A stretch of 43,098 bases of DNA from a virus (IMGVR_UViG_2541047775_000007), one strand, 5' to 3'; positions 4,898 to 36,756 are shown, counted from the first letter of the stretch. Notes: a model not told the origin generated them from the sequence alone. Program-made: numbers and translations.

Positions 4898-5090
4898 CGT
4901 TTATATGCATAACAACCTCCTGAACAGTAAAGCATTACGCATAATAAACCATTTATGGTTTTTTGTTACTTTAACATCGTCAATTCCCTGTTTTTCATGC
5001 CGAGAATAAAGCTCACCTTTTACATGACTCTGAAGAAACAAACAGTGAAGAGCAGGTTGAATACCGCACCATTTAATGGCGCGGTAGCAG

Positions 5091-5387
5091 TCAAATAGAG
5101 AAATAAACACAAAAACAAAAAACAACAGGAACAGCAAAATCCAACAGACTTCCCACATCCCACACGCGTGGATCAAAACCTCCCCACCACGGCATGTTGA
5201 TACGTTTCCCTTTCCCAAACTTTTCTATCCAGCGATATTCTGCCTGGGTGTGTTCACGCGCAATGAAGAACGTACAACCGGCTATCGCACCGTAAGCCCA
5301 GTTTCCGGTAAAAATACCAACCAGTACCTGAGCCACAAAAGCGCAAAGCGAGTGAAGAAATGGAGTGACATCAATGCTCTTAATCAT
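5091..5387 (-). CDS. small membrane protein (98 aa), translationally coupled to the tailspike gene
   Basis: Start codon overlaps tailspike stop (ATGA); 2-3 hydrophobic segments. Confidence 0.5.
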   Translation of the reverse strand: MIKSIDVTPFLHSLCAFVAQVLVGIFTGNWAYGAIAGCTFFIAREHTQAEYRWIEKFGKGKRINMPWWGGFDPRVWDVGSLLDFAVPVVFCFCVYFSI

Positions 5388-7573
5388 GAAACTTCCCCAT
5401 TGGTTGAAAATATGGCTCCTCCAACGCCAAGTGTATTTCGTGTTGTGCTCAACCTCAGAGGGCTGGAGTCAGAATTAGAATATCCTGTAGCAGAAATAAA
5501 AGATCCTCCACTAATAGTCAACTGCGGAACATCGGCTATATCTGAATAAGTTCTGTCAGCAACAGTATTATTTATAGCCACATATGATCCAAAAAAACTT
5601 CTTATTGTTTGGTTTTTAACTTTACTTCCTTCAATGGTTATCCTACTACCACAGTCGGCAATAAATCCTGAATCTGCATCCAGCGTTGCATTCATAAAAG
5701 AAGCTTCAGATCTCTCTACATCAATCCATCTAATATCTTTTGTGGGATTTGCACCAAATACATGACAAATATTAGAGTTAAACCTTACACCATCTTGGAG
5801 GTGCATTAATTTTTTTATATCTGTACCCCATAGCCTTGGAAAATTAACAGATGCTCCTGCATGGCAATCAAATCCCAGCTCAGCCCCTGAGATATCTACA
5901 GCCTTTCCTGAAATAACAGCACCAGTGTCTGCATTAACGGCTGTTCCACAATTGCGCATATCATTACCAGCAACATCAACGCAACCCGCACCATCAATAC
6001 GCACACCAAGTGCACATCCATAAAAACCTTTTTCAATATTTGGTTCAAGGACTTTACCACTTGTTTCTGCATCACTTTCTTCAACGTCATGTCGTCTTGC
6101 ATCAACATATGCTGTATGAATGCAGGTTAATCCACGATATGAGCAATGTATAGTTTTATGGTCGCGTATATTAACATTTGAACCATCTCTTACATTCCAT
6201 CCTATATAACAATAGCTTGCACTTGACCCCTGAAAATCTGCTTTAACATTATAAATACAATTAACTGACGCAACCGTACTCTCTGTGCACCGTTCAAACT
6301 TGCTTACAGGCATTGATGCCTTGACATTATTTACCAGTTGCAGGGAAGAGTATCTGCTATAAGAAAAATCACATACGTAATACCCTTCTGGCATATATGC
6401 AGCAACACTTTCCTCATCAGGAGCACATCCGGTATGATATGCACTAATTTTTGCACCAAAACTACCATGAATTCCAACGTAGAACTTTCGAGCACCTGAA
6501 TACGGATAGAAATTAAGTTCAGCTTTTTGAGTTACAATAAATGCACAAACATCGCTATCATCTCTATTTTCTTCGATCTGAATAGCAAATACAGGACTTT
6601 TTGCTGCATCGCAAATGTAAAATAAATACTTGTATTCGTAATACGTTCTAACGATTTTAGTAAACAAACGAGTGTCAGAGAAAACCACTGAGTCTTCTGA
6701 TGTTATTTTAATCCAAGACAAATCAACACCTGAACTGAATTCAATTTGATAGTTGATAATATGCCCGGTCTTAATTCTTATTTCGCAGAAAGCATTACCA
6801 CCATCCCACATAGGTCTCATTGACTGGGCTGCAATGATTGCATCTTTGAGTGTAGGGTAATCACCCCATTCGCCAACAGTAATAACAAAAGTATAATATG
6901 AGTTAAAAACAGCGGCATTTTTGCCTTTGGATATCAACTCCTTAATCATAAAAATATTATCTTCGTAATCACAAGGAGAAATTATATCCCTCATTTTGCT
7001 TTGAAATGTTCGTTGTCTTGCCCCGCTTCCTGACGGTATAAACCAACCAAAACCACCAACAACCCCGGCGATTGCAGCATCGACATAATTACGCATTGAG
7101 CGATTATTTACAGCATCCTGCTCAAGTGATGGATCTGCAAGGTTAGAAATTCTGTTTTGCTTTGCATCGTAATATTTTGCAAGCAGAGAGGGCTTCATCA
7201 ATGCACGTCTGAACCACCCAAAACATTGCTGGATCAGCATCGTCAGGTAGTCAAAGGCATCTTCATGCACTTCGGGGAAAAATTTTCCCTGATTGCGAAG
7301 GTCTGTCTCCTGCACTACATCAAGCACACGATCTATCGTAATTCGCCATCCAGTAGCAAGCGGAGACGGAAGAACCACAGAACCGCCACTATAAGTGCCC
7401 GCCCCAGTTACCGTATAACCGGTATCCAGGACCAATTCTGTTACGTTCCCGTTCAGGTCAGACACCTGAACAACCAGGTCTGATTTTCTGAAAATTCGAA
7501 AAGTATACGGAAACGATGTCGTAACGCCGTTACCGGTGTATTCGTTGTGGTCAACTTCGGTTGAGACCGTCAT
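5384..7573 (-). CDS. tailspike / tail fibre with conserved N-terminal virion-attachment domain and probable beta-helix receptor-binding/depolymerase body (729 aa)
   Basis: N-terminus MTVSTEVDHNEYTGNGVTTSFPYTFRIFRKSDLVV matches the conserved podovirus tail-fibre/tailspike N-domain motif; AT-rich body with many Cys and Asn/Gly repeats; RBS ggag before ATG. Confidence 0.8.
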   Translation of the reverse strand: MTVSTEVDHNEYTGNGVTTSFPYTFRIFRKSDLVVQVSDLNGNVTELVLDTGYTVTGAGTYSGGSVVLPSPLATGWRITIDRVLDVVQETDLRNQGKFFPEVHEDAFDYLTMLIQQCFGWFRRALMKPSLLAKYYDAKQNRISNLADPSLEQDAVNNRSMRNYVDAAIAGVVGGFGWFIPSGSGARQRTFQSKMRDIISPCDYEDNIFMIKELISKGKNAAVFNSYYTFVITVGEWGDYPTLKDAIIAAQSMRPMWDGGNAFCEIRIKTGHIINYQIEFSSGVDLSWIKITSEDSVVFSDTRLFTKIVRTYYEYKYLFYICDAAKSPVFAIQIEENRDDSDVCAFIVTQKAELNFYPYSGARKFYVGIHGSFGAKISAYHTGCAPDEESVAAYMPEGYYVCDFSYSRYSSLQLVNNVKASMPVSKFERCTESTVASVNCIYNVKADFQGSSASYCYIGWNVRDGSNVNIRDHKTIHCSYRGLTCIHTAYVDARRHDVEESDAETSGKVLEPNIEKGFYGCALGVRIDGAGCVDVAGNDMRNCGTAVNADTGAVISGKAVDISGAELGFDCHAGASVNFPRLWGTDIKKLMHLQDGVRFNSNICHVFGANPTKDIRWIDVERSEASFMNATLDADSGFIADCGSRITIEGSKVKNQTIRSFFGSYVAINNTVADRTYSDIADVPQLTISGGSFISATGYSNSDSSPLRLSTTRNTLGVGGAIFSTNGEVS

Positions 7574-7677
7574 GTTAAATCTCCAGATAGTCGCAGCACC
7601 CGTTGCGCCGCATATCTGGTTATTCTATTACCTGAAAAACCACATATGGATAAAAAGGCTGTAAATACGAATAGATA

Positions 7678-7692
7678 TTACCTTTCAGGTAA
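7678..7692. promoter_or_regulatory. operator-like palindrome TTACCTTTCAGGTAA (motif A)
   Basis: Perfect 5-bp inverted repeat with 5-bp spacer; one member of a family of at least 13 near-identical sites. Confidence 0.6.
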
Positions 7693-7729
7693 TTTGCAAA
7701 ACGTGCTGGATAGCAAACAAATTATTTGC

Positions 7730-7749
7730 TACTGTATAAATATACAGTT
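7730..7749. promoter_or_regulatory. LexA (SOS) box TACTGTATAAATATACAGTT
   Basis: CTGT-N8-ACAG core at 7732-7747 with AT-rich spacer, 18/20 match to the E. coli LexA consensus; 20 bp upstream of the start codon at 7769. Confidence 0.75.
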
Positions 7750-7768
7750 ATTGCATGGAGAAGATAAG

Positions 7769-8026
7769 ATGCAGCGGTATCACTATCCACTGGAAGACGG
7801 ATTTACCGAAAGGATTCACACGCCGGGAGGCGTCAGGTCACTGGTGGAGGGATCGCACTTGATGAAATTACTCCGGGATCTCGATAAGGATGGATTTAAT
7901 GTCGATGGCCCACTTGCCGAACTGACTGCACTGATTAACTACGTTACCAGCTCACAGATGTCTATGCGGGATCTGCAAACACATCTCGACTATTGTGCCG
8001 AACAATTACGAAAACAAACCCGGTAA
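7769..8026 (+). CDS. small antirepressor-like protein (85 aa), paralog of the C-terminal domain of the 9177..9833 antirepressor
   Basis: RBS ggag 8 nt before ATG; sequence aligns with the Ant C-terminus (shared GV..L.E.S.LM.LL..L..DG..V.G..AELT....Y......RD.QTH..Y); LexA box immediately upstream. Confidence 0.65.
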   Translation: MQRYHYPLEDGFTERIHTPGGVRSLVEGSHLMKLLRDLDKDGFNVDGPLAELTALINYVTSSQMSMRDLQTHLDYCAEQLRKQTR

Positions 8027-8030
8027 ATTT

Positions 8031-8052
8031 AAAGGCCGCAAGAGCGGCCTAT
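8031..8052. terminator. bidirectional intrinsic terminator (aggccgc-aaga-gcggcct) between convergent genes
   Basis: 7-bp GC stem flanked by T/A-rich runs on both sides; nearly identical hairpin recurs at 11282-11299. Confidence 0.55.
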
Positions 8053-8777
8053 CGTTTCGCTTTGTGCTCGTCCCAGCACGTTTTGCACCATGCCATTAAG
8101 CCATCCGCATTTTGATTATTAGGGTAAAAGCTTGTTCGTTTTCTGCGGACATTACAAATTGGGCACCACTTCATATGGCGTGTATTCTTTGGGCCATCGA
8201 GACACCTTGCACACCACTTAGTCAATCCATCTGGATTTTTTGACGATTTCCTGAATTTTTCATATGGTAGGTTTATTCTGCATCGCAAGCACTGCTTGCT
8301 ACCACTTGAAACTCTGTTAGCTGATTCTTCTTTTGGCGGCGATACAGAAGGTATTCTTGCTGGCTCTGATACTGCCTGAGGTGCTTTTTTAGATGACTGA
8401 GACGATATGTCATCACCAGGGAATCTTCCATGATATGCCGGACGCATTGACACTCCAGGTGGAAGCTCAGCTGTAAACGGCTTTGGCTGAATCAGTTGCC
8501 TCTCTTTTGCTAACTCCTGCTGTTTATAATATGTCTGGATTACCGCACTATCATAAGCAGGAGGTGCGGAAATATTAGGCGCATTACCTCCAGTTTTTTG
8601 AAACTGAGTAGAGGTGTGTTCTATCACCTGTGTACGATTAATCGTTATCTCCCCATCTTCGGTCTTTATCGTTTTGTTATGATTAACGACCGTACGATCA
8701 GAGATCTTAGTCTTGTTCTGGTTGATAACGTAAATAATCACCGCAACCACACCAACAACTATCCAGAAAACTTCCAT
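8049..8777 (-). CDS. membrane-anchored protein with C-terminal tandem CxxC zinc-ribbon-like motifs (242 aa)
   Basis: RBS gaggaaaag before ATG; N-terminal TM helix; long low-complexity linker; C-terminus CLRC...NPDGLTKWCARC...WCPIC...NADGLMAWCKTC (duplicated DGL..WC..C unit). Confidence 0.7.
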   Translation of the reverse strand: MEVFWIVVGVVAVIIYVINQNKTKISDRTVVNHNKTIKTEDGEITINRTQVIEHTSTQFQKTGGNAPNISAPPAYDSAVIQTYYKQQELAKERQLIQPKPFTAELPPGVSMRPAYHGRFPGDDISSQSSKKAPQAVSEPARIPSVSPPKEESANRVSSGSKQCLRCRINLPYEKFRKSSKNPDGLTKWCARCLDGPKNTRHMKWCPICNVRRKRTSFYPNNQNADGLMAWCKTCWDEHKAKR

Positions 8778-8797
8778 TGCTTTTCCTCACAATAACA

Positions 8798-8812
8798 TTA
8801 CCTTAAAGGTAA
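8798..8812. promoter_or_regulatory. operator-like palindrome TTACCTTAAAGGTAA (motif A)
   Basis: Perfect palindrome 21 bp upstream of the minus-strand start at 8777. Confidence 0.6.
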
Positions 8813-8861
8813 TATCTTGCTTTCAGGTGATCAAGCGTTAAACGCAATCAACCAAATACGG

Positions 8862-8905
8862 TTGATTTTAATATTTCTTCGCGTTTATCATTACCTTTGC
8901 GGTAA
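8862..8905 (+). promoter_or_regulatory. candidate promoter (TTGATT -35) with overlapping operator TTACCTTTGCGGTAA (8891-8905)
   Basis: -35-like hexamer followed by a motif A palindrome; lies about 270 bp upstream of the antirepressor gene. Confidence 0.45.
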
Positions 8906-8942
8906 ATTTACATTGCACTCCTCTTGTGCCATAGTAATCGGG

Positions 8943-9018
8943 CACTGGCAAAATCCAGTGCCGGGATTGGTCTCCCGGATTACTAAGTGGCGCATACCAC
9001 GCCAGACGTGGTTTTTTT
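8943..9018 (+). promoter_or_regulatory. structured leader: three consecutive hairpins ending in an intrinsic terminator (ccacg-ccaga-cgtgg plus T7)
   Basis: Hairpins cactgg/ccagtg (8943-8960), ccggga/tcccgg (8961-8978), and terminator 8996-9018; no credible ORF. Confidence 0.45.
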
Positions 9019-9176
9019 ATGCGTATAGCACAGTCATGCCAGAATTATGGTGGGCTGAATGGGGGTCCGAAAGGACGCCGGTACCACTTAGGCCGGTAAG
9101 ACCAACTCCGTTCAGTTCACCACCATCTGATTGGTCTCAGCGGTGGTGATGTAATTCGCTAAGTGGAGACGCCATC

Positions 9177-9833
9177 ATGAACGCTCAACTCATCCCCGTA
9201 TTCAACGGCACTATATCTAACGAAACAGCCCTACTTTGTAATGCCCGCGATCTGCACACTTTTTTAGGTGTTAAAAAGGTGTTTGCAGCATGGATTACAA
9301 ATCGCATATCAGAATACGAATTCATTGAAAATCAAGACTATATTTTGCTTTCCAATTTGGGAAAGCAAACATCTGGTAGAGGCGGCCACAACCGCAAAGA
9401 GTACCACCTCACCCTTGATACAGCCAAAGAGCTGGCGATGGTCGAGCGTAACGAAAAAGGTCGCCAGGTGCGACGCTACTTCATTGAATGCGAGAAACGT
9501 TTAAGACAACAAGAAACAAAAGTGGAGAAGGTCTTGTCAGGCTTCATGCCCGCCATTATGGAGGCGATCAAGCTGGAAGACAAAAAAGAATACAGCGCCC
9601 CACTGAAGCCCGGCTACCGCAGCCTGATTCATTCTCCGTCTGGTGTTCTCGGACTGACGGAGAACTCACTGCTGATGAATCTGCTGAACCAGTTACAGGA
9701 AGACGGGCACGACGTATCGGGCGCGGCGGCGGAGCTGACCACCATGTTCTGCTACATCGTCGGTGTGAGCAAATGCCTGCGTGATATCCAGACGCACGCG
9801 GAGTACATCAACGACAAGGCAGGGTTCTTCTGA
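9177..9833 (+). CDS. phage antirepressor, AntA/AntB-type N-terminal domain plus C-terminal domain shared with the 7769..8026 protein (218 aa)
   Basis: N-terminus MNAQLIPVFNG...KVFAAWITNRISEYEFIENQDYIL...RYFIECEKRL resembles AntA/AntB antirepressor family; intrinsic terminator at 9843-9865 follows. Confidence 0.7.
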   Translation: MNAQLIPVFNGTISNETALLCNARDLHTFLGVKKVFAAWITNRISEYEFIENQDYILLSNLGKQTSGRGGHNRKEYHLTLDTAKELAMVERNEKGRQVRRYFIECEKRLRQQETKVEKVLSGFMPAIMEAIKLEDKKEYSAPLKPGYRSLIHSPSGVLGLTENSLLMNLLNQLQEDGHDVSGAAAELTTMFCYIVGVSKCLRDIQTHAEYINDKAGFF

Positions 9834-9906
9834 CAGAACGGCGGCACAGGGATGTGCCTTTAAATAATTCTGTACAGATTGCAGACCGGGGGTGAATAGC
9901 GTACTA

Positions 9907-9921
9907 TTACCTTAAAGGTAA
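9907..9921. promoter_or_regulatory. operator-like palindrome TTACCTTAAAGGTAA (motif A)
   Basis: Identical to the 8798 site; 27 bp upstream of the start at 9948. Confidence 0.6.
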
Positions 9922-9947
9922 ACCATGTGTTTACATGAGGAGGAGAT

Positions 9948-10157
9948 ATGGGATTTTGGTTCGCTCGTACAAAAACGAGGGATAATGCACCCAGCCCTCA
10001 GGCAAAAAATGCAGAAGTTCCGGCGTCAGCGCAGGTTAACAAGCGTGGTGGTGTGTATATCTCATCACAGCAAATTTCTGAGCTTCCTGAGGTTAAGGAG
10101 ATGCGTCGTCTCGCTGCTGCAATCGTTAAACAGGATCTTGCCACTGTAAGGAAATAG
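9948..10157 (+). CDS. small hydrophilic protein (69 aa), first gene of a two-gene cassette
   Basis: Very strong RBS gaggaggagat before ATG; stop overlaps start of downstream gene. Confidence 0.6.
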   Translation: MGFWFARTKTRDNAPSPQAKNAEVPASAQVNKRGGVYISSQQISELPEVKEMRRLAAAIVKQDLATVRK

Positions 10158-11023
10158 TGTTGTTAGCTCTTCTAATTATCCCCATTCTGGTTAGTGGTTA
10201 TATTATGATAACCGCTAACCAGTATCATTATTTCCGTTTATACCGACATGAAGGCCAGCTTCTTTATATGAAAGTAGCTGCATTAGGTACATATTGCCTT
10301 GTTGCTTCGGTAATAATTGCCGCATTTATAAAATATAAATATCCTGATTTTCACCTAGTTCACGATATGGTGGAAACTTTTAATGTAACGTCAAAACCAG
10401 AAACAGATAGAATTTACATGTGGCTGCTTCTTCTCTCAGCCACATCCATTTGCTTCTCTTTGTGTTATGTGTCTGTTGTGTGGGTGAAAGATTTTCTTCT
10501 TGGTTGTTTTTATAAACGTGATATTTACGAGCAAAAAACAGAGGCAATGAAGGCCAGAGTACTGCGAAAAACTTACTCGCAAGGTTCTTTAGACTTACTA
10601 TTGCTTGATGCTATTGAATCGGATCCTAAACGACCAATGCTGATTACTTTATCATCAAACAAAGTGTATGTTGGAATAATAAATGGTTCTGGTGAACCAA
10701 CGGAAAATCAGGGTCCGCATCAGCACATATCTTTTGTTCCTTTAATGTCAGGATACAGGAACAAAGACAACTTATCTGTCACATTCACTAATGCTTATCC
10801 AGGAGAAATACAGGTCAAGCGGACTGCAGCAATAAGAGGAATTAGCAGAAAGAAAGTGCCAGGACTTGAGATCATGGTGTCTATTGACGAAATAAGTTAT
10901 ATATCATGGTTTGATTTTGAAGTATATAAAGCAACAAATAACAAAGTAGAATCCAGGGGGCACGTTATTCGTGTTACCAAAAATGGAAGAAATATATATC
11001 AAAGAAATAGCAAAAAAGAATAG
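10157..11023 (+). CDS. AT-rich membrane protein (288 aa; about 3 N-terminal TM helices plus about 170-aa C-terminal domain), candidate superinfection-exclusion/defence protein
   Basis: GTG start with RBS aaggaaa, overlapping upstream stop; markedly lower GC than flanking phage genes; strong terminator downstream. Confidence 0.6.
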   Translation: MLLALLIIPILVSGYIMITANQYHYFRLYRHEGQLLYMKVAALGTYCLVASVIIAAFIKYKYPDFHLVHDMVETFNVTSKPETDRIYMWLLLLSATSICFSLCYVSVVWVKDFLLGCFYKRDIYEQKTEAMKARVLRKTYSQGSLDLLLLDAIESDPKRPMLITLSSNKVYVGIINGSGEPTENQGPHQHISFVPLMSGYRNKDNLSVTFTNAYPGEIQVKRTAAIRGISRKKVPGLEIMVSIDEISYISWFDFEVYKATNNKVESRGHVIRVTKNGRNIYQRNSKKE

Positions 11024-11043
11024 CCCGCGCTGCGGGCTTTTTT
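11023..11043 (+). terminator. rho-independent terminator (gcccgc-gct-gcgggc plus T6)
   Basis: GC stem followed by TTTTTT immediately after the 10157..11023 stop. Confidence 0.7.
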
Positions 11044-11115
11044 GTGGACGAAACAAAAGCCAGTGCTACACTCATTGACGCCACATTGAGGTGGCTTATA
11101 GATGGAAATTTCACA

Positions 11116-11277
11116 ATGAAAAAAGCATTTGCTGCACTGTTCGTTTTGTTGTCTCTGGTAGCTTCAACTCAGGCCTTTGCCGGTCGTTGTCAGCACGACA
11201 GCGATACTGCCGCTGACGGCTCCCGCTGCGGTGGGCGTTCTGCGGATTCCCGCCCGGGTGGCGGTGGCATTCGTTAA
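11116..11277 (+). CDS. small secreted Gly/Cys-containing peptide (53 aa precursor, about 31 aa mature)
   Basis: MKKAFAALFVLLSLVASTQAFA signal peptide, then GRCQHDSDTAADGSRCGGRSADSRPGGGGIR; candidate promoter TTGACG-N17-ATAGAT upstream; weak RBS. Confidence 0.45.
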   Translation: MKKAFAALFVLLSLVASTQAFAGRCQHDSDTAADGSRCGGRSADSRPGGGGIR

Positions 11278-11299
11278 AAACAAGGCCGCGAAAGCGGCC
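11274..11299 (-). terminator. intrinsic terminator (aggccgc-gaaa-gcggcct) ending the minus-strand late operon
   Basis: 7-bp GC stem; T-run on the minus strand; separates convergent transcription units. Confidence 0.6.
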
Positions 11300-11300
11300 T

Positions 11301-11312
11301 GTGACATGTCAC
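11301..11312. other. perfect 12-bp palindrome GTGACATGTCAC (motif C copy 1)
   Basis: Overlaps the stop codon of 11309..11605 and abuts the terminator; same palindrome at 31123-31134 and near-identical at 28858-28869. Confidence 0.6.
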
Positions 11313-11605
11313 GTCCCTTTTCTGAATGATAGCCATTCGAAAAATGATGACATTCCACCGCAGACAATAGCAAAGATGATCCCACCAAAGAAGAGAAGGC
11401 CAGCCTGCCACCACTCCCACCGCCATACATCCACAGCGCCAACCATACCAACAATCGCTCCAACAAATGGAATATAGCTCACGATGAAAGCAATGGGGGC
11501 TGCAATTATCCAGTGCAATCCCCACCATGATTCAAGCCCAGCCATAATTGCTGCCAACTGAAAAAGACCAACGACGATATAAACAATGAATCCTATAGCT
11601 TGCAT
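11309..11605 (-). CDS. small integral membrane protein (98 aa, about 3 TM helices, Trp-rich)
   Basis: RBS aggtga before ATG; highly hydrophobic; last gene of the late operon. Confidence 0.6.
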   Translation of the reverse strand: MQAIGFIVYIVVGLFQLAAIMAGLESWWGLHWIIAAPIAFIVSYIPFVGAIVGMVGAVDVWRWEWWQAGLLFFGGIIFAIVCGGMSSFFEWLSFRKGT

Positions 11606-11617
11606 GTAGTCACCTAT

Positions 11618-11791: not shown

Positions 11792-11800
11792 AACACTTCC

Positions 11801-27779: not shown

Positions 27780-27847
27780 ATCAATGACTCCGTACGCAAT
27801 TAAATTATTACCAATTTAACCACATATGATTTATTTATCGTAGATAG

Positions 27848-27884
27848 TTGACATTTAACGCACAAATTATTACCTTTAAGGTAA
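27848..27884 (+). promoter_or_regulatory. promoter-like TTGACA (27848-27853) with operator TTACCTTTAAGGTAA (27870-27884)
   Basis: Consensus -35 hexamer followed by a motif A palindrome, pointing toward the tRNA island. Confidence 0.5.
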
Positions 27885-28206: not shown

Positions 28207-28283
28207 GTGGCATTAGCTCAGTTGGACAGAGCAACCGCCTTCTAAGCGGTTGGTCGCAGGTTCGAATCCTGCATGCCACGCCA
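28207..28283 (+). tRNA. tRNA-Arg (anticodon TCT), phage-encoded
   Basis: Manual cloverleaf: acceptor gtggcat/atgccac, D-arm gctc...gagc, anticodon stem accgc/gcggt with loop CTTCTAA, T-arm gcagg-ttcgaat-cctgc, discriminator G plus encoded CCA. Confidence 0.85.
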
Positions 28284-28470: not shown

Positions 28471-28481
28471 AAGGTGAGATT

Positions 28482-28853: not shown

Positions 28854-28857
28854 CACC

Positions 28858-28869: not shown

Positions 28870-28873
28870 AAAC

Positions 28874-28901: not shown

Positions 28902-28943
28902 TCCTCACCAGAGGATATCAATGACATTATCCCCACCAGCGGA

Positions 28944-30419
28944 TTAAGCATAGGGATCGTAATCTGTAATGGCCTTGCCTTGCTGGTTCTGCTGCCCGGG
29001 AAGTCGCAGGCGCTTTGACACCGGGAAAGCAAACGTCAGCAGTAGCGCATCGCCTTTACCAGGAGAACGCCCAAGACGCTCTTTGATATCTTCCTTCGGT
29101 TCGATAACGATTTTACCGTCCACACGAACTTTGTACTCTGCCGCCGACAGGTCGTCTGCAGTTTCCTGGTCATCCAGCATGCCGCCCAGCCTCAGCCATG
29201 TCTTACATGAGTTGAACATCTCCCCACGCTTGTTAAGCATCTGCGGGTCAGTGGACGCACCGCCGAACGGAACAAGTTGCCATGTACGCCCCCAGCCATC
29301 ACCGATTGACTTCAAACCGGTTCCGTAACCGAAGTCGATGAACACCGCGTCAGCCTGATACTGGTCTTCAAAGTCAGCGATACGCTTCGCCATTATCAGA
29401 TCGTCAGTGGTCTTGTTGCCAGTCCACAGCACCTTACTGTGCAGCCCCTGCCGCAGGTATATCACAGCGTCATCAACTCCGGAGTATGCCGGGTCAACGC
29501 CGATTATCACCGGAGCATGTGCAACCTGCGCAGCGGTTACCACCCGTTTCATTGCCTCATCAGTAAGACCGGTAGGGATAAACTGCAATTCAGATGCATC
29601 AGGGAATATGCCGCGCACACGGATTTTAACGAAGTCGCTGTCTTCCCCGTAGTCATCAACCCATTTCTGCAACTGCTGTTTGTTAGTGCCTTCCACCGTC
29701 CGGCTGTCAATCTGCGCAGTTTTCCAGCGGTGTTTGTATTTGCGGAAACATTCGCGAAAACGCCCGGTGTTACGTGTAGGGTTTCCGAACGCCACCCAGA
29801 TAATCTCAGTGTCTTCGTCCGTTAGCGCACCCTCGGCAACTTCCCACACCAGATCCGCAATGTTCGACGCTTCATCGAATACCACGATGATGCGTTTGCG
29901 CTCGTTGTGTAGTCCGGCGAATGCCTCAGTGTTGTGCTCAGACCAGGGGATTGCGTCAGCTCGCCACCGTTTGTCGTGCCCAGGATCATTGCTGTACATC
30001 GCGGTAGCGGTACAGGTAAACCAGTCTTTCGTGATAGCAAGGTTCGACCACTTGATAATTTCCGGCCAGGTCTTCGTTCGTAGCTGGTTGTCGGTGTTGG
30101 CGGTCACCACGACCTTACAATCCTCGCAAGTGGACATGCCCCAGTTGATCAGCATTGAGATGAATGCGGATTTACCAATACCGTGACCAGAAGCGCGTGC
30201 CAGCATAAGCGGCTGATAGCGCGTCTCTGGATTCTGCAGGTGATCACGTATCTCTCTGAACGCATCGGCCTGCCACTGACGTGGACCGGTGGCATGTGCC
30301 AGTTCAGTACCCTCTTCCCCCCACGGGAACGCATAGAGGGCATAGCCAAGCGGATCGTGAGTGAACCCTGCAATATCCTCGATTAACTGCTCTTCAGGAG
30401 ATAACGCTGTATCTGTCAC
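28944..30419 (-). CDS. terminase large subunit (491 aa)
   Basis: Walker A-like GHGIGKS, acidic nuclease-domain residues, position after terS. Confidence 0.85.
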   Translation of the reverse strand: MTDTALSPEEQLIEDIAGFTHDPLGYALYAFPWGEEGTELAHATGPRQWQADAFREIRDHLQNPETRYQPLMLARASGHGIGKSAFISMLINWGMSTCEDCKVVVTANTDNQLRTKTWPEIIKWSNLAITKDWFTCTATAMYSNDPGHDKRWRADAIPWSEHNTEAFAGLHNERKRIIVVFDEASNIADLVWEVAEGALTDEDTEIIWVAFGNPTRNTGRFRECFRKYKHRWKTAQIDSRTVEGTNKQQLQKWVDDYGEDSDFVKIRVRGIFPDASELQFIPTGLTDEAMKRVVTAAQVAHAPVIIGVDPAYSGVDDAVIYLRQGLHSKVLWTGNKTTDDLIMAKRIADFEDQYQADAVFIDFGYGTGLKSIGDGWGRTWQLVPFGGASTDPQMLNKRGEMFNSCKTWLRLGGMLDDQETADDLSAAEYKVRVDGKIVIEPKEDIKERLGRSPGKGDALLLTFAFPVSKRLRLPGQQNQQGKAITDYDPYA

Positions 30420-31012
30420 TGATTGCCATCCTGACGTTCTTTCAGTCTCTTCCTGGCTGCCGCTATGCGATCAGCAATTGTCACATTCACATTAACATCC
30501 AGGCGTTCTTTGAACGCGTTGACGTCGACGTGCTTACCAATCAGTTCGAGGTTCTTCACCTTGTCAGGCCATTTAATTTTTTTGAGGATTGTCTCTATCG
30601 AATCCTCGTCCATGTTCATGATGGTAGATGACAGATCAAAGCCACTAAGCGTAGTGCGCCAGATTTTCGGCCACTCGCGGATTGGCTTAAGGCTTCCATC
30701 GTCGTTGAGGATATCAATCACGTCCATCTGGTCGATCTCCACCAGGCGCATGAGAACGTAATCAGCACTGACGCGCATTCGTTTGTTGCGCTCCTCCATC
30801 AACTCGGCAATCCGTTTTTGAATGCGTTCATCGCGCATCATGACACTGGCTTTAACTGCCGCTGTATTTGGGGAGAATCCTGCGTTAATCGCAGCCTGAC
30901 TCTGGTTTTCAGGCGTTTTGATGTATGACTGGCAATAAGCCTCCTGCATTGCTGTGAGCGGCTTAAATTGCGTTGATTTGCGTTTATAGGTTTTAGGTTC
31001 AGCAGGCATCAT
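30416..31012 (-). CDS. terminase small subunit (about 198 aa; ORF-track start at 31090 probably over-extended)
   Basis: Overlaps terL start; basic N-terminus MMPAEPKTYKRK; motifs recalled from small terminase families. Confidence 0.6.
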   Translation of the reverse strand: MMPAEPKTYKRKSTQFKPLTAMQEAYCQSYIKTPENQSQAAINAGFSPNTAAVKASVMMRDERIQKRIAELMEERNKRMRVSADYVLMRLVEIDQMDVIDILNDDGSLKPIREWPKIWRTTLSGFDLSSTIMNMDEDSIETILKKIKWPDKVKNLELIGKHVDVNAFKERLDVNVNVTIADRIAAARKRLKERQDGNQ

Positions 31013-31054
31013 AACCACCCTGGTAATTGTTACCGTCGTGGTAATAGTAACATG

Positions 31055-31081
31055 CAAAATAAAGCCGCCATAGTTGGCGGC
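31055..31081 (-). terminator. intrinsic terminator (gccgcc-atagtt-ggcggc, T-run on minus strand) upstream of the terminase/late operon
   Basis: 6-bp GC stem followed on the minus strand by ctttatttt; lies between the zinc-finger gene and terS. Confidence 0.5.
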
Positions 31082-31122
31082 AGTATTCAAAACCCATCAA
31101 ATTCATCATGCATAATCTACTC

Positions 31123-31134
31123 GTGACATGTCAC
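31123..31134. other. perfect palindrome GTGACATGTCAC (motif C copy 3)
   Basis: Overlaps the stop codon of 31131..31469, 38 bp upstream of the terminator. Confidence 0.6.
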
Positions 31135-31469
31135 ACTATTAATTTCGTTTCATGCCAGCCTTTAGTCACCCAGCATTGCGAGTCACCATTGCACGGGCAT
31201 GAATTAACTGGAACTCTCTCGCCGCACTTACCGCAACGTTTTCTGCTGATCGATTTTATACGCCCGCGCACGCGTGCATCATCCTGGCGGATCAGTAACG
31301 CTATATACTCACCAAATTCGTAAGGCGCACGCCCGGGGCGACGCGTGGCACAGTTACGCTCCAGCATTTCAATTTCCTGAGCATCAAGCACAATCTCCAG
31401 CTTACGTACACCGGATGCAGCTTGTCTGGCTCTCTGAGCGGCTTTGCGCTCTGCTGCTGATTTAGCCAT
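31131..31469 (-). CDS. zinc-finger protein (112 aa), candidate late-gene regulator/antiterminator
   Basis: C-terminal CGKCG...CPC...C cluster; basic N-terminus; last early gene before the terminator and terS. Confidence 0.45.
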   Translation of the reverse strand: MAKSAAERKAAQRARQAASGVRKLEIVLDAQEIEMLERNCATRRPGRAPYEFGEYIALLIRQDDARVRGRIKSISRKRCGKCGERVPVNSCPCNGDSQCWVTKGWHETKLIV

Positions 31470-31833
31470 TCTGATTTTCCTGCATCATGAGAAAGACAAT
31501 CATGGCGGCGCGGAGTGGGTTGTTGTCTATGGTAATAAATTTACAAAATCTATCCGCCTCCCACCAATATTCATTCTTCATTCCAGGATTATTTCTTTCG
31601 TATGCACATATGCTGATCTGATGTTTTGCGATTACAGGCCATGCAGCTCTCGGATCATTGCAGTAGTCAGGTAAAGGGTTTAATGGCTCAAAAGTTGTAT
31701 CAGTATTTCCGTAATACCATTTGTTGGTGTTATTCCCTGATGTTTCCGGTTTACACGCCCAAAGGCCTTTAAAAATTATGTCTCCTACCATTCTGTTAAT
31801 TTCAAAATCACTTAACTGTGAATAGTCCATCAT
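31462..31833 (-). CDS. NinX-like (DUF2591-type) phage protein
   Basis: Sequence pattern recalled from lambdoid nin-region proteins. Confidence 0.45.
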   Translation of the reverse strand: MMDYSQLSDFEINRMVGDIIFKGLWACKPETSGNNTNKWYYGNTDTTFEPLNPLPDYCNDPRAAWPVIAKHQISICAYERNNPGMKNEYWWEADRFCKFITIDNNPLRAAMIVFLMMQENQNG

Positions 31834-32462
31834 TTCACCTCCTGCGGCGGTTCTGGTAGAGGCATCCAGTGGGTTACGTCATCCAAGATATATCCTGATA
31901 AATACGTGAAAGCTCTATATTTTTTGTAATCAATTGGATTTACAACCCAGTTCCAATATGCGGCCACGATTTCACCTTGACTAAATGCCAGTAACATTTT
32001 GGTGTCTTCCGGCATTCGCTCACTACAGCTTATCCAACCATCCGGAGTTACCGGAGAGTTGCCCGATAGCTTGTTCAACTTGTAATTCTGGCTTACAGGT
32101 TGGCTACCATGAAGCATGGCAGCACGGCAGGCATTCCAGCCTCTCACCTCTGCAATAGCGGCAACAGCATCGACCGCGTACATTTTAAGAGGGTTGGGCA
32201 TTGGTTTTTCTTCAGGTACTACTGGCATTGGAGGGGCGGCGTATACTTCAATAATCCCATTATCAATAGGCCATTCTCCATCCTTGAGGTAGTCACTTGT
32301 GCCGTCAACTTGCTGTTCTGCAATGTGGAATGCACCTATTGGTTTTGCTTCCAGCGATGCCAGAGCAATTCGTGCCAGTTCCATTTGTTCACCACGGGTA
32401 AGCCCGTTTTCAAGCGGATTTTTAATGAACAATTCAATACGTTCTTTGGTAATAGTGGTCAT
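31830..32462 (-). CDS. DUF551-domain phage protein (210 aa)
   Basis: C-terminal WISCSERMPE...THWMPLPEPP pattern typical of DUF551. Confidence 0.5.
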   Translation of the reverse strand: MTTITKERIELFIKNPLENGLTRGEQMELARIALASLEAKPIGAFHIAEQQVDGTSDYLKDGEWPIDNGIIEVYAAPPMPVVPEEKPMPNPLKMYAVDAVAAIAEVRGWNACRAAMLHGSQPVSQNYKLNKLSGNSPVTPDGWISCSERMPEDTKMLLAFSQGEIVAAYWNWVVNPIDYKKYRAFTYLSGYILDDVTHWMPLPEPPQEVK

Positions 32463-32472
32463 GTGTTACTCC

Positions 32473-32736
32473 TTAACCCGCAGTGCTTTCAACTGATGAG
32501 GGGAATAAAATCTTTTCATCAAATCCGGCATTCATATCATGGACAGCAACACACCAATCCATCGACGAACGATTATCAAGAGCCTCCATGATTTCATCCA
32601 TGCGGCGCAGGTCATACAGGTAAATGCTTTTATCGCCAATGGTGTAAAAACCAATTTTTTTCGGTGATGGGCAGCGATCAAGAACGTCCTGTAATTCGTT
32701 CAACCATGCCCGTTCTTTTTTTGTTAAAGTTGCCAT
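32473..32736 (-). CDS. hypothetical protein (about 88 aa)
   Basis: Start chosen at ATG 32736 with strong RBS aaggagag and ATGA-type coupling to upstream stop. Confidence 0.45.
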   Translation of the reverse strand: MATLTKKERAWLNELQDVLDRCPSPKKIGFYTIGDKSIYLYDLRRMDEIMEALDNRSSMDWCVAVHDMNAGFDEKILFPSSVESTAG

Positions 32737-32737
32737 A

Positions 32738-33424
32738 TCACTCTCCTTTGATGCGAATGCCAGCGGCACGGGAATCATTCCATCGCTTTACTTCTTCACG
32801 AATTACGTCAATGCATTCTTTCGAATCCATTAGGTAATCTTCATCAAAAAGCCTTTCCTGTTCGTTTTCTATCGCAACAATGATTGCTTCAACTAACTTT
32901 TGTGCCTGAGAACCACTTTCTAACTCTGCAATGCGCTTCTCTGCGGCTTCCAGCTTCTCGCGCATATCGTCAACGTACTCGACCAGAGATCCGCCAGCAG
33001 GAATTTCGCACTCCTCGACCAGTTGGAAGTAGATATCAGCTGCGGCCCGTGTGTTGCTATGCCTAGCGTCGCCCATCTCACCTTCACGAAGAGCATCGCG
33101 TTCGGCGGTAAGATTGGCTATTTTGCTGTCTTTGCCTTCCAGCTCAACGCGAAGCCTCCCTACCGTTAGCGCAATATCCTCGTTCTCCTGGTCGCGGCGT
33201 TTTATGTATTGCTGGTTTCTTTCCCGTTCATCCAGCAGTGCCAGCACGGTTTCTGGTCCGGCCAGAAATTTGAAGGCGTTGAGCGCATCAATATCCACAC
33301 CGTAATCTTTAAGTTCCTGTTCGCTTATCAGATCATCATCAACTGGCAACATTAACAGGCGTTCCATTGCCGGAATTGCACGTTCTGCCGCCTCACGCAG
33401 TGCCTGATAGTTAATTTTGGTCAT
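32738..33424 (-). CDS. Ea22-like coiled-coil protein (228 aa)
   Basis: Charged coiled-coil composition and position in the nin-like region. Confidence 0.4.
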   Translation of the reverse strand: MTKINYQALREAAERAIPAMERLLMLPVDDDLISEQELKDYGVDIDALNAFKFLAGPETVLALLDERERNQQYIKRRDQENEDIALTVGRLRVELEGKDSKIANLTAERDALREGEMGDARHSNTRAAADIYFQLVEECEIPAGGSLVEYVDDMREKLEAAEKRIAELESGSQAQKLVEAIIVAIENEQERLFDEDYLMDSKECIDVIREEVKRWNDSRAAGIRIKGE

Positions 33425-33425
33425 A

Positions 33426-33725
33426 TCACATCACCCTGAAGCCGTTGCATTTACGTAAAAAATCGCAGATATAGCCCTTCATTTTTTCGTGCCAATCTCG
33501 ATCATTCCCATTGCACCAACCATCAGGTGGAGTCCAGTTTTCTATCAGAGCAGCCATTTTCTTTGCTTTCGCCGGAGTAGCTGTTGCGGTATCGCAGTAA
33601 TGACGAGTGTCAACCAACGTATCCATACCATCGATATCAAGTACGCAAAACCATGTGTGATTCGGCATTTCAACAGATGGTATTTGTTGCCCGCGTCGAC
33701 GTTTATCAATAAGACATACAGTCAC
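33426..33725 (-). CDS. hypothetical protein (99 aa)
   Basis: ORF with start/stop overlaps to neighbours. Confidence 0.4.
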   Translation of the reverse strand: MTVCLIDKRRRGQQIPSVEMPNHTWFCVLDIDGMDTLVDTRHYCDTATATPAKAKKMAALIENWTPPDGWCNGNDRDWHEKMKGYICDFLRKCNGFRVM

Positions 33726-34339
33726 TGGTTGCCTCCTTTGCGAAGCTGGGCAGCAAAGTCAACTAACCACTCAGTCATTTCAACCTTCCCTACCAGGTCT
33801 GAACCAGGGTGCATACAGCAATCACTCTGCGCCGCTTTGAAATCCTTATACTCATATTCTTGGGCCACCAGATTTTTTGCAGCTTCTATAGCAGCATCCA
33901 CCCCCTGCGCCCGCACTTCAGCCAGGCATTTGCGAAACTCGGAAACGTACTGTTCGACGCTCATTCCCCAGCTAAGTGGACATTCATTGAATGTTTCGCC
34001 TTCGTGCTCTTCATCAGGTAGCTCTTTGGTAAAGAACTCACGTTCAATGGCGTGGAGTGTGTCAGCAAAACGACGTAAGTTACTCAAACCTGTCGTAATG
34101 GAGAATTCAGGAGCATCACATCCGACGCCCATCTGCTGATAAACGGCGGTTTTGAAGGCCTTAAGCCCCGCATTCTCCGCCGCAAGCGCATTAGCACGCA
34201 CCAGTTGCACTTCCAGTTGCGTTGCCAAATCGCTGATCAGCTTTGCCACACTGCGCATATCAACGGCACCACATTCTGCTTTCAGTTCCGAAGCCATCTC
34301 ATGCCCGGCGGCAACTAACCCTTTGATATTACTTTCCAT
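33722..34339 (-). CDS. Ea22-like protein (205 aa)
   Basis: Coiled-coil N-terminus, acidic segment; overlaps downstream start. Confidence 0.4.
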   Translation of the reverse strand: MESNIKGLVAAGHEMASELKAECGAVDMRSVAKLISDLATQLEVQLVRANALAAENAGLKAFKTAVYQQMGVGCDAPEFSITTGLSNLRRFADTLHAIEREFFTKELPDEEHEGETFNECPLSWGMSVEQYVSEFRKCLAEVRAQGVDAAIEAAKNLVAQEYEYKDFKAAQSDCCMHPGSDLVGKVEMTEWLVDFAAQLRKGGNQ

Positions 34340-34400
34340 CTTTACCCTCGCTTATCCACATAACTTATTGATTACATTGATAACTAAAAAGATCGTCGAT

Positions 34401-34745
34401 TCAGAACTCTTCGATGTTCCAGCCACCACCTGCTTTCTTTGGTTTAACCGTTACCCCGATGATTCGGAACGGATACTGATCTGCGGCGACTTTGGTTTTC
34501 ACCCTGGCGTCGTCGGTCCAGAAACCTTTCACTTCGTGCAGTTCCATCTCGCCGGTGGCGAGCATCACAGCAAAATCGGGCGTATAGAACGTGTTGTCAG
34601 CTAACCGCAACTTGATACCCTCAAATCGATACCAGACGATTTCCCCTGCACGTTTACGCTGCTCAAGGTGCTGGCAATACGCAGATTCTGTTTTGTTCAT
34701 CTGGCCTGTTTTGAGTCGACCAAGAGCCTGTATCTGTTTTCTCAT
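34401..34745 (-). CDS. DUF1064-like phage protein (114 aa)
   Basis: Pattern recalled from lambdoid early-region proteins; operator palindrome overlaps its RBS. Confidence 0.45.
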   Translation of the reverse strand: MRKQIQALGRLKTGQMNKTESAYCQHLEQRKRAGEIVWYRFEGIKLRLADNTFYTPDFAVMLATGEMELHEVKGFWTDDARVKTKVAADQYPFRIIGVTVKPKKAGGGWNIEEF

Positions 34746-34748
34746 GAT

Positions 34749-34825
34749 TTACCTCTAAGGTAATTAAAAACCACATAAGACACGAAATCAATAGAGTTTA
34801 GAATATTTTGTTACCCAACAGGTAA
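34749..34825. promoter_or_regulatory. two operator palindromes TTACCTCTAAGGTAA (34749-34763) and TTACCCAACAGGTAA (34811-34825)
   Basis: Motif A sites in the intergenic region between the P-like gene and the DUF1064 gene; first site overlaps the RBS. Confidence 0.55.
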
Positions 34826-34862
34826 TTGTCGAGGCGTAAAAAAATGCGCTATCGCGCTGGTA

Positions 34863-35663
34863 TTACTTGATAAATCCTGCCGCCTTTCCCCGCCTGTATT
34901 CCTCCATCAGCCACTGCGCCGGTGTTATTCCCCCAAGGGTGGCGGCGTTAGGCATGCACCCGAAACTTCTCCCTGGTGGATGGTAAACGTCTCTCCCTGT
35001 GCCCGGAGGTGTACTCATGGGCTCTGGCTTTGCCTGTATGCTGATCACCGGATCGGGTATCTGCTGTCCGGAAGCCACCTTTTTCGCCCAATCATCGAGC
35101 AGCCTGCGCGCGTGTTTCTCAACCTCAATCTCGCTAAGCTGGCGCTGATACATTGCACGGCGGGTATCACATACGACCCAGTACATAACCGGATGTCGCC
35201 ACGGGAATCTTTCGGGACCACCAGGATATAAACTTTTTTCCTTGCTGTACCGGTGAAACTCCGCCATCACATCGTCAATGGTGACGCCAAGAACCATCTT
35301 GCTGTCTTTACACCACTTGATGAATTGCCCTGGCGACGGCCAGAACGGAGACTCACTGGCGCGGGCGTGGCGCATACCAGCAGAAACCTGTTCACGGGTT
35401 CGGATCCCCCCTTCGGCAAACGCAGCAATCCACTGCTGTTTTGCAGCAACTTCCTGCTCTGGCGTCTTCAGGTTGGTTACCACTGCCGCCGGAAACAGTT
35501 GTTTCAGCTGTTTGAAAAGGGCATCAACAAGCCTCTCTGCTGACATGTTCACCACATTGTCATTGTTGACGTACTGATGCTCATAACCTGACATGCGAGA
35601 AAGGGCTTCTCCGTCACGGTTTTGTATCGCGGTAAAAACGTTGTTCACAAGAAATCCTCCCAT
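34863..35663 (-). CDS. replication protein P-like (helicase loader), 266 aa
   Basis: Motif SPFWPSPGQFIKWC matches lambda P RPFLPSPGQFVAWC; position after the O-like gene. Confidence 0.75.
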   Translation of the reverse strand: MGGFLVNNVFTAIQNRDGEALSRMSGYEHQYVNNDNVVNMSAERLVDALFKQLKQLFPAAVVTNLKTPEQEVAAKQQWIAAFAEGGIRTREQVSAGMRHARASESPFWPSPGQFIKWCKDSKMVLGVTIDDVMAEFHRYSKEKSLYPGGPERFPWRHPVMYWVVCDTRRAMYQRQLSEIEVEKHARRLLDDWAKKVASGQQIPDPVISIQAKPEPMSTPPGTGRDVYHPPGRSFGCMPNAATLGGITPAQWLMEEYRRGKAAGFIK

Positions 35664-36460
35664 GCTTCAGGGCTGTTCCAGTGCGGAACGTTGTTATCAG
35701 GTAATGTTGATTGCTTCTGTCTGCTAATCTGCAGCCGCCTTGCCAGCTTCTGCTCCCACTGTGCCTGATGGTATGCCTTACCCTCAGCCATCCAGTAAAT
35801 TCTGAACTCTGCAAGTTCCTGTGCCGTTGGCAGACTGTCCAGGTAGATCCCCTGCAATGAGCTTTTCCGAAGAAAGTCATCTGATGGCTGCCATTGTTCA
35901 TGCATGACAAATTTGCCTAATTGCCCTGGCCCACCAGGAGGAACAAAGTTATTCATCACGGCGTTGTTTGCGTTGGGGTCATGATGCACAGAATCCCCGT
36001 TTTTTGTCCTGCTCTCCCTCTCTTGGTTAAATGACTGGTTATATGACTGGTTCTGGATCCCGTTTTTGGGATCATTCAACATCCCGTTTTTGGGATCATT
36101 CAACATCCCGTTTTTGGGTATATTCCCGCTTTCGGTAACATTACCGTTTTCGGGTTCATTACCCCCTTCCCGGTTGCCTTTAATGTTCCCTTTTTTGGTT
36201 ATATTAAGAGAGAAAACCCGTACTCTTTTCGTCGCCCCCTTTCTCTCTCCGGTATCTGAAATAAGCCCCATTTTCATGAGCGATATAAGCCCGGCCTGCA
36301 CGGTTTTTTTATTCAGGCAAGTGTCTTTAACGAGGCGTTCTATGCTGGGGTAGCAGAGGTTATATTCATCGGCTCTGTCAGCCATCGAGAGCAGTATGAG
36401 CTTTAATGATGAGCTACCTGGATCTGTCTCCCAGGCCCAATCTGTTGCATGTCTGCTCAT
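35645..36460 (-). CDS. replication initiator, lambda O-like (271 aa)
   Basis: N-terminal winged-helix region resembling the lambda O DNA-binding domain; repetitive central linker encoded by iterons; followed by the P-like gene. Confidence 0.65.
   Translation of the reverse strand: MSRHATDWAWETDPGSSSLKLILLSMADRADEYNLCYPSIERLVKDTCLNKKTVQAGLISLMKMGLISDTGERKGATKRVRVFSLNITKKGNIKGNREGGNEPENGNVTESGNIPKNGMLNDPKNGMLNDPKNGIQNQSYNQSFNQERESRTKNGDSVHHDPNANNAVMNNFVPPGGPGQLGKFVMHEQWQPSDDFLRKSSLQGIYLDSLPTAQELAEFRIYWMAEGKAYHQAQWEQKLARRLQISRQKQSTLPDNNVPHWNSPEAWEDFL
36057..36200. repeat. iteron array (candidate ori) inside the O-like gene: 24-bp unit atcccgtttttgggatcattcaac x2 exact, then degenerate copies
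   Basis: Exact tandem units at 36057-36080 and 36081-36104; further ccgttttcgg-like copies to about 36200. Confidence 0.65.
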
Positions 36461-36475
36461 GATTAATCTCCGCTA

Positions 36476-36676
36476 TCAGCCTGAGTGTTGTGGGGAGGAA
36501 TTAATCATGATCTGCTTAATCTCTGCCCTGATGCGACGGTTTGATTCCATGGTGCACTCAACACAGTGTCCGTTGTAAACCCAGCGTTCACTGTCATGTC
36601 CGTGCTTACATGTTTTTCCGGTGTAGTAGCGTTTAAGTCCGCGCTTTGCGGCATCAATACGTGTAATGATTTCCAT
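36476..36676 (-). CDS. small zinc-ribbon protein (66 aa)
   Basis: CKHGH...CVEC motif; ATG start preferred over the TTG-initiated 87-aa extension. Confidence 0.45.
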   Translation of the reverse strand: MEIITRIDAAKRGLKRYYTGKTCKHGHDSERWVYNGHCVECTMESNRRIRAEIKQIMINSSPQHSG

Positions 36677-36756
36677 GGTAAGCCCTGTTATTGGTATTGG
36701 GATTACGGTTATTTTGTGCTGACACAAAAAAAAGATCAACCATATTTGGTTTTTTA

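Follow-up and report, generated by a model that had tools for sequence, protein, structure and literature searches.

A candidate second type of operator-like palindrome at promoters under Rep control in epsilon15/phiV10-like prophages

The stretch of DNA analysed here (IMGVR_UViG_2541047775_000007; 43,098 nucleotides, referred to throughout as the window) is a Uetakevirus (epsilon15/phiV10-like) prophage of E. coli, in which the - strand carries the early-right, late and lysis genes. As prophages of E. coli O157, Salmonella and Klebsiella, phages of the epsilon15, phiV10 and SPC32H kind convert the serotype of their hosts, and structures of their repressor, Rep, have been solved both free and antirepressor-bound, with an unusual "trans" DNA-binding mode proposed. 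The window shares 96-98% identity over long stretches with phages HEMP4, phiv142-3 and phiV10, encodes Rep, and holds 11 exact and three one-mismatch copies of the palindrome TTACC-N5-GGTAA (motif A), which matches the 'repressor' protein_bind features of the epsilon15 GenBank record (AY150271.2), where the operator takes the form ATTACC-N5-GGTAAT. Our analysis concerns another palindrome, motif B, which is found at seven promoter regions: those of the lysis, tailspike, gp3/portal, DUF1064 and gp40/replication genes, P_L, and the isrK/C4/antirepressor control region. Enrichment in the window and comparison among related phages point to motif B as a real regulatory site, a palindrome of a second operator-like kind at the promoters that Rep controls in this group of prophages.

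Read on the - strand, motif B is a quasi-palindrome, (A/T)CCATAT(A/G)TGGTT, with the ideal form AACCATATATGGTT, and in phiV10 and Tyrion the lysis copy is a perfect palindrome. Every copy keeps the TGGTT arm and a centre in which pyrimidines and purines alternate is conserved, whereas the left arm is weaker where it doubles as a -35-like hexamer. Three fixed differences separate it from motif A: the arms are AACCA/TGGTT instead of TTACC/GGTAA (GGTT is invariant in all strong copies), the half-sites stand six base pairs (bp) apart rather than five (ACC-N6-GGT, not ACC-N5-GGT), and the ATAT centre is conserved rather than free. The exact form AACCA-N4-TGGTT occurs twice in the window (4947-4960 and 36738-36751) against 0.05 expected, and none of 100 shuffles reached two; AACCACATA is present at 7638, 27818 and 34769 (three found, 0.36 expected), and the looser pattern AACCANATA gives 12 matches where 1.09 would be expected. 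These five elements had been reported in an earlier, sequence-only reading of the window, which placed 36738-36751 and 7638 correctly and the others one to three bases off (at 4950-4963, 27819 and 34767); two sites are added here, one at 8850-8863 and a weak one at 37897-37910. A 13-bp weight matrix trained on sites from other phages only returned 7638, 27818, 4947, 36738 and 8850 as its five top loci in the window, and within intergenic DNA (2,072 nucleotides (nt), 42% GC) five loci scored at least 13 bits against 0.13 expected, a number that none of 1000 simulations reached and a frequency above that expected of AT-rich intergenic DNA. Separately, a 9-mer, AACCAGATA, occurs six times (7613, 26536, 37897, 41277, 41424 and 42211; rough expectation about 0.3), three copies being inside methylase and integrase genes near the right end; these may be weak relatives of motif B, integrase arm-type sites or a coincidence.

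Motif B is not free-standing, most copies lying whole helical turns from a canonical Rep operator. The distance between the centres of motifs A and B is constant for each promoter across all genomes compared (Table 1), and every distance is within 1.5 bp of a multiple of 10.5, which would arise by chance with a probability of about 1e-3 over the seven promoter classes. The nearness to motif A operators described in the sequence-only reading is thus real and more regular than was claimed, with centres 19.5, 40.5-43.5 or 51.5-52.5 bp apart. At the tailspike promoter the 26-nt interval between the two motifs shows 35-54% identity among four lineages and is constant in length. Across 11 genomes, a full motif A was found within 80 bp of 32 of the 40 strong motif B sites and only at the offsets listed, and GGTAA or TTACC 5-mers stand at exactly N5 beside motif B, on either side, at 13, 12 and 4 sites. 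Each strong intergenic copy in the window lies at most 55 bp from a motif A or adjoins a Rep half-site, and so falls within a Rep-controlled promoter region. At gp3, motif B and its adjoining half-site form a pseudo-operator, TGGTT-N5-GGTAA, which is 62 bp from the full operator, the same distance as separates the two full operators at P_L and at the DUF1064 promoter. Two exceptions in the window concern the distribution of the two motifs: the lysis promoter in this lineage is without a full motif A, and the rep/cro intergenic region, which holds three motif A sites, is without motif B.

Nine complete Uetakevirus genomes and eight prophages of other genera retain motif B (17 in total, from at least 10 enterobacterial genera), with diverging flanks. 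Sites at the same place are present in epsilon15, SPN1S, 66FD, Tyrion, BUCT554, BUCT711 and Kp4865-1, as well as in prophages of Citrobacter, Erwinia, Kluyvera, Buttiauxella, Pseudocitrobacter, Scandinavium and Klebsiella. The best-conserved copies are those of promoters with a weak -35; the least conserved are those of P_L and the DUF1064 promoter, where the hexamers are good and motif A sites already overlap the core. In the Scandinavium prophage the P_L position of motif B is taken by a hybrid, TTACC-N5-GGTTA, and such a hybrid also lies at terS (small terminase) in several lineages; in the window it is the site at 31012-31026 (TTACCAGGGTGGTTA on the - strand), with a GGTTA arm at motif A spacing, and the hybrid arm is seen again in Tyrion and a Klebsiella prophage. 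A Buttiauxella prophage carries an A-A pair where others carry motif B. These hybrid sites and this A-A pair suggest that either type of site can take the place of the other. Relatives in which a different immunity module separates motif B from motif A were not found, both motifs being carried by about 35 Uetakevirus records and the eight prophages of other genera; Sodalis phiSG1 is too degenerate for the comparison. Of the two motifs, only motif A carries an annotation in the epsilon15 GenBank record, and a full-text literature search for the motif strings returned unrelated primer sequences only. Motif B therefore appears to be undescribed in the GenBank records and literature searched; the epsilon15 genome paper and two SPC32H Rep papers lie outside that search and may mention it.

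The position of motif B was compared with promoter hexamers predicted from sequence, and positions are given relative to the predicted starts. P_L is predicted as TTGACA-17-AATTAT (37888-37916) and motif B fills its spacer, with its centre at about -19.5; the lysis promoter of the window is predicted as GTAACA-17-TATTAT (4969..4941) with motif B in the spacer in the same register, and in other phages the lysis copy shows GGTT, 7 nt, and then TATGAT or TATAAT. At the tailspike and gp3 promoters, GGTT is followed after 10 nt by TAGAAT or TAATTT, and the left arm of motif B (TTCATA or ATCATA) takes the place of the -35; the conserved block following the tailspike copy contains both a Rep half-site and the -10-like TAGAAT. 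The last two T residues of the gp40 copy open a conserved -35-like TTGATC, with CAAAAT 17 nt further on. A layout resembling that of an activator box, with a nearly fixed distance from motif B to a -10-like hexamer and a poor -35, is predicted at gp3, tailspike and lysis, and other registers are found at P_L, gp40, DUF1064 and isrK. Because its register relative to the predicted hexamers differs among promoters, motif B is seemingly not itself a core promoter element; most copies overlap or adjoin the predicted -35 or spacer, where RNA polymerase would have to bind. At the lysis, tailspike, gp3 and gp40 promoters, motif A lies far upstream (about -60 to -82), and motif B is the sole conserved partner of that single motif A as well as the one palindrome conserved across the core. 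At 34805-34832 (-) another promoter-like sequence, TCGACA-16-CAAAAT, was seen with the upstream Rep operator in its spacer; the DUF1064 gene may thus have two tandem promoters, in which case motif B could lie outside a spacer, near +23 relative to the distal promoter.

Table 1. Motif B sites, motif A sites, Rep half-sites and regulatory genes in the window. Distances are between the centres of motif A and motif B.
Feature	Coordinates	Strand	Distance A to B (bp)	Remarks
Motif B, upstream of lysis cassette	4947..4960	-	43.5 (genome comparison)	AACCATTTATGGTT; toward genes on - strand ACCATAAATGGTT; ortholog in 8 distinct sequences
Rep-type half-site AGTAA	4966..4970	-		5 nt upstream of lysis motif B; GGTAA-N5-B rule
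Weak inverted second motif B	7609..7621	+		CGCATATCTGGTT; 30 bp from main tailspike copy; E. coli phages only
Rep half-site	7628..7632			TTACC on +, GGTAA on -; exactly 5 nt from tailspike motif B
Motif B, upstream of tailspike gene	7638..7651	-		reads TCCATATGTGGTT; then conserved GGTAATAGAAT block
Motif A, canonical Rep operator, tailspike	7678..7692		40.5	TTACCTTTCAGGTAA; epsilon15 ortholog annotated 'repressor'
Motif A, isrK region	8798..8812		51.5
Motif B between two motif A sites, isrK region	8850..8863			AACCAAATACGGTT, within longer palindrome AATCAACC...GGTTGATT
Motif A, isrK region	8891..8905		41.5	abuts -35 of predicted promoter TTTACA-17-CATAGT (8907-8935)
Rep half-site	27808..27812			exactly 5 nt from gp3 motif B
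Motif B, upstream of gp3/portal	27818..27831	-		reads ATCATATGTGGTT; then invariant AAATTGGTAATAATTTAA block
Motif A, gp3	27870..27884		52.5
Two adjacent motif A sites	31012..31044			18 bp apart; over ribosome-binding site and start of terS
Motif A, DUF1064 gene	34749..34763		19.5	over ribosome-binding site
Motif B between two motif A sites, DUF1064 gene	34769..34782	-		reads GTCTTATGTGGTT; weaker, less conserved copy
Motif A, DUF1064 region	34811..34825		42.5	62 bp from other motif A
Motif B, upstream of gp40	36738..36751	-		reads ACCAAATATGGTT, then GATC
Motif A, one mismatch, gp40	36757..36771		19.5	just downstream of terminator of cro-position gene
Cro-position helix-turn-helix protein	36827..37057	-		epsilon15 gp39-like; recognition helix invariant across relatives
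Three motif A sites between rep and cro-position gene	37094..37156			O_R-like cluster; no motif B
Rep gene	37212..37796	+		full-length homologue of SPC32H repressor (PDB 5D50)
Motif A, upstream of P_L	37854..37868		42.5
Weak motif B in P_L spacer	37897..37910			AACCAGATACGCAT; stronger in Tyrion and BUCT554
Motif A, just downstream of P_L -10	37916..37930		19.5

The reading that we rank first, tentatively and at rather less than even confidence, is that motif B serves as a partner operator that would give the Rep tetramer access to the core promoter. A secondary source (PMC9638917) describes Rep as binding DNA as a tetramer that engages palindromic sites, with weak binding by the dimer, and each operator would therefore need a partner site. 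A Rep of the SPC32H type would bind well only as a tetramer engaging two palindromes, anchored with high affinity at the canonical operator. In the head, tailspike, lysis and gp40 promoters the anchoring site would be too far upstream to block RNA polymerase, and motif B could be the partner site for the second pair of DNA-binding domains, bringing the repressor onto the core; the CATATATG centre, being deformable, may allow these domains to accept a spacing one bp longer. In favour of this reading we count the enrichment and conservation of motif B, its phased spacing from and co-occurrence with motif A, the hybrid and substituted sites, the coverage of the core by motif B where motif A is remote, and the lysis promoter of phiV10, whose hexamers would call for a repressor over the core in a lysogen. 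Several of our observations weigh against this proposal. Motif B has invariant features of its own and is not a blurred motif A, as would be expected of a different DNA-binding specificity. Six of the seven copies share the same orientation relative to the downstream genes, and at three late promoters with a poor -35 motif B keeps a near-fixed distance from a -10-like hexamer, which is the classic look of an activator box. In addition, motif B is present where two full motif A sites already exist (P_L and the DUF1064 gene), and in the isrK region some 85 bp separate it from the predicted start further downstream, so that it is off the core promoter.

Nearly as likely as a Rep partner site, and close to it in standing, is a separate phage regulator: motif B may be the site of a phage-encoded dimeric protein that drives an early-to-late switch. 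Such a protein would activate the weak late promoters of gp3, tailspike and lysis together with the gp40 promoter, where the centre of motif B is near -40.5, would dampen the two promoters whose spacer holds motif B (P_L and DUF1064), and would compete with Rep at gp3 and tailspike, where motif B overlaps the Rep pseudo-operator. The distinct and invariant specificity of the motif, the orientation of its copies with transcription, the near-fixed distance to the -10 at three late operons in all genomes, and the conservation that peaks exactly at the promoters with a weak -35 are all consistent with this, as are the lack of motif B in the immediate-early rep/cro region and the presence of several small putative regulator genes in a group of phages whose examined records annotate no late-gene regulator. 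Against it, no candidate protein can be tied to motif B, centres at about -19.5 and -26.5 would be unusual for an activator, and neither the strict helical phasing with Rep operators nor the flanking half-sites would be required. The lysis promoter of phiV10 also has a perfect TATAAT and a -35 matching at 4 of 6 positions, and would therefore need a repressor over the core in the lysogen. A more specific form, in which motif B is the box of a Uetakevirus switch regulator that competes with Rep through interlocked motifs sharing TGGTT, or in a close variant the structurally unusual Rep tetramer recognises both palindromes despite their unequal spacing, one as anchor and the other as occluder, seems to us somewhat unlikely; if true, competition would make a CI/Cro-style decision out of two site families held in strict helical register at every lytic promoter.

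The remaining explanations carry much less weight. We consider it improbable that motif B is the site of a host DNA-binding or DNA-bending protein, conserved across the Enterobacterales, that aids bridging by Rep or modulates the promoters. The same motif does recur in phages of E. coli, Salmonella, Klebsiella, Enterobacter, Citrobacter, Erwinia, Kluyvera, Buttiauxella and Scandinavium, its centre is AT-rich and deformable, and the epsilon15 record puts predicted IHF sites beside repressor sites. However, inspection of the aligned sites shows no fit to the IHF consensus WATCAANNNNTTR, the epsilon15 IHF features do not overlap motif B, and the DnaA box TTATCCACA is not matched, since only the gp3 copy (TTAACCACA) reaches 8/9 and the copies with CCATATATGG are without CACA. 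To our knowledge, and by inspection, motif B resembles no enterobacterial regulator site. Still less probable is that the motif has no separate function and is a by-product of the shared descent of duplicated promoter modules or of overlapping hexamers: the P_L, gp40 and DUF1064 promoters do look like copies of one module, and parts of motif B double as -35-like hexamers (TTCATA at tailspike, TTGATC at gp40), but motif B persists from genus to genus amid diverging module sequence, its register relative to the hexamers varies, and its enrichment is far above chance. At the bottom of the scale, and rejected here on hairpin energies and unconserved T-runs, is the idea that the palindromes act in RNA, as hairpins or short intrinsic terminators. 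The two exact 14-bp palindromes are indeed followed by T-runs, as the sequence-only reading had stressed, and the 8850 copy was caught by a terminator-like scan; the T-runs are not conserved in relatives, however, the predicted hairpins have energies of -3.8 to -5.8 kcal/mol whereas the real terminator (36786-36805) reaches -15, the palindrome is imperfect in most copies, and they lie upstream of operon starts rather than at operon ends. No Rfam match was found at motif B at the gathering threshold, the four Rfam hits of the window being elsewhere, and the RNase III features of epsilon15 lie elsewhere or overlap motif B by chance.

The sequence-only reading had proposed a second DNA-binding specificity acting at the same promoters, with a Cro-like protein or zinc-finger proteins among the candidates; Rep as a reader of this second site type was not among them. 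That a distinct second element exists is borne out by the enrichment, the cross-genus conservation, the fixed spacing and the invariant features, and the named candidates are weakened. Which protein binds motif B, where transcription starts and in which direction the effect runs are points that we infer. The window encodes several small putative regulators, namely a gp40-like zinc-finger protein (36476-36676), a PerC-like activator (40711-41010), a ribbon-helix-helix/zinc protein (31131-31469) and the cro-position protein, and no candidate activator co-varies with motif B. The ribbon-helix-helix/zinc protein is disfavoured because phage ZF40, although it encodes a homologue with 67% identity, is devoid of both motif A and motif B; the protein gave no match in Pfam, NCBIfam or the PDB, and its AlphaFold model is of low confidence (predicted local distance difference test, pLDDT, 57). 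The cro-position protein is likewise disfavoured, as its homologue in the Psychrobacter phage pOW20-A lies in a CI/Cro switch in which only A-type operators are visible. In that unrelated marine phage the operators (5014-5053 and 5896-5960) read ATACC-N5-GGTAT, with the geometry of motif A and changed outer bases, and CI is a Rep-like N-terminal domain fused to an S24 peptidase, alongside a gp39-like Cro. The family of cro-position proteins therefore probably reads A-type sites, judging from these operator sequences, and the DNA-binding module of Rep is common to RecA-cleavable and antirepressor-controlled repressors. The C-terminal HTH_3 domain of Rep was considered as a reader of motif B, and its putative recognition helix varies among phages with identical motif B, which is weak evidence against it. 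A Pfam/PHROGs scan of ten open reading frames of the window found no Q-like antiterminator, and none is annotated in the Uetakevirus records examined.

Several other features lie near these sites. The motif B at 8850 is upstream of isrK/C4-like RNAs and a Bro/KilAC antirepressor gene: Rfam detects an isrK Hfq-binding RNA at 8942-9018 (+; 67.7 bits) and a C4 antisense RNA at 9043-9127 (+; 61.2 bits), directly upstream of a Bro/KilAC-type antirepressor reading frame at 9177-9833 (+). This module resembles the antisense-controlled, immI-like antirepressor of P1/P7, here under the Rep operators at 8798 and 8891 and the motif B between them. A LexA-box-like palindrome, CTGTATAAATATACAG, is located at 7732-7747, upstream of a small antirepressor gene (about 7769-8026, epsilon15 gp19-like), and is kept in all relatives examined; Ant of SPC32H is reportedly under LexA control, with which this palindrome fits. 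Inside the DnaT-like replication gene are two tandem identical 20-nt hairpin units at 36067-36086 and 36091-36110 (+), each reading TGGGATCATTCAACATCCCG and then TTTTTGGG, which could be origin iterons. Rfam also reports the small RNA STnc490 near the left end of the prophage (2778-2901, -; 146 bits), and a tRNA gene lies at 28207-28280 (+) in a reverse-oriented moron region between the terminase and head genes.

Motif B does not point to a new kind of biology, as its kind is that of a phage operator or promoter box. Its position whole turns from operators and over core promoters provides a concrete map that predicts the fragments Rep would bridge and the bases that would matter, and the same map points out promoters that might need an additional factor. 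This may be of use for prophage annotation, for the engineering of phiV10-based reporter phages and for understanding prophage induction.

Among known systems, the Rep operators of the epsilon15/SPC32H type share with motif B their promoters, an ACC...GGT core, the palindromic form, the overlap with hexamers and the phasing, and hybrids between the two exist; the outer bases of motif B are GGTT instead of GGTAA, however, its half-sites are one bp further apart and its centre is conserved. Late-promoter boxes offer another comparison. Lpa-dependent promoters of P1 have a -10 hexamer and a palindrome near -22 with no -35, and the MotA box of T4 lies near -30. As in these, motif B is a conserved element at a poor -35, at a near-fixed distance from a -10-like hexamer, upstream of late operons and co-oriented with them, but unlike them it is found at early promoters too, where its register differs, in one case at a distance of about 85 bp upstream, and is phased with repressor operators. 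An analogy with Q-type or AlpA-type loading sites, which likewise place an element inside the promoter spacer, was set aside because only the position is alike: the AlpA site of P. aeruginosa spans -25 to -20, is a 6-bp asymmetric GGGACG and acts with a sigma-dependent pause and a downstream terminator (PMC9371919). Lambda CI at O_R1-3 and O_L1-3, like other multimeric repressors, uses several sites on the same face of the DNA, with a strong site aiding a weaker occluding one; lambda has one site family, whereas here there are two that differ in sequence and internal spacing and are set at short distances (2, 4 or 5 turns). In the CI repressor of coliphage 186, a single helix-turn-helix is said, in the work of Shearwin, Dodd and Egan of 2002, to recognise both A-type and B-type sites. 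That protein family is unrelated, and the use of a second site type by Rep is only proposed here, but 186 CI would be a precedent for one repressor with two recognition sequences at different promoters combined with bridging by a multimer.

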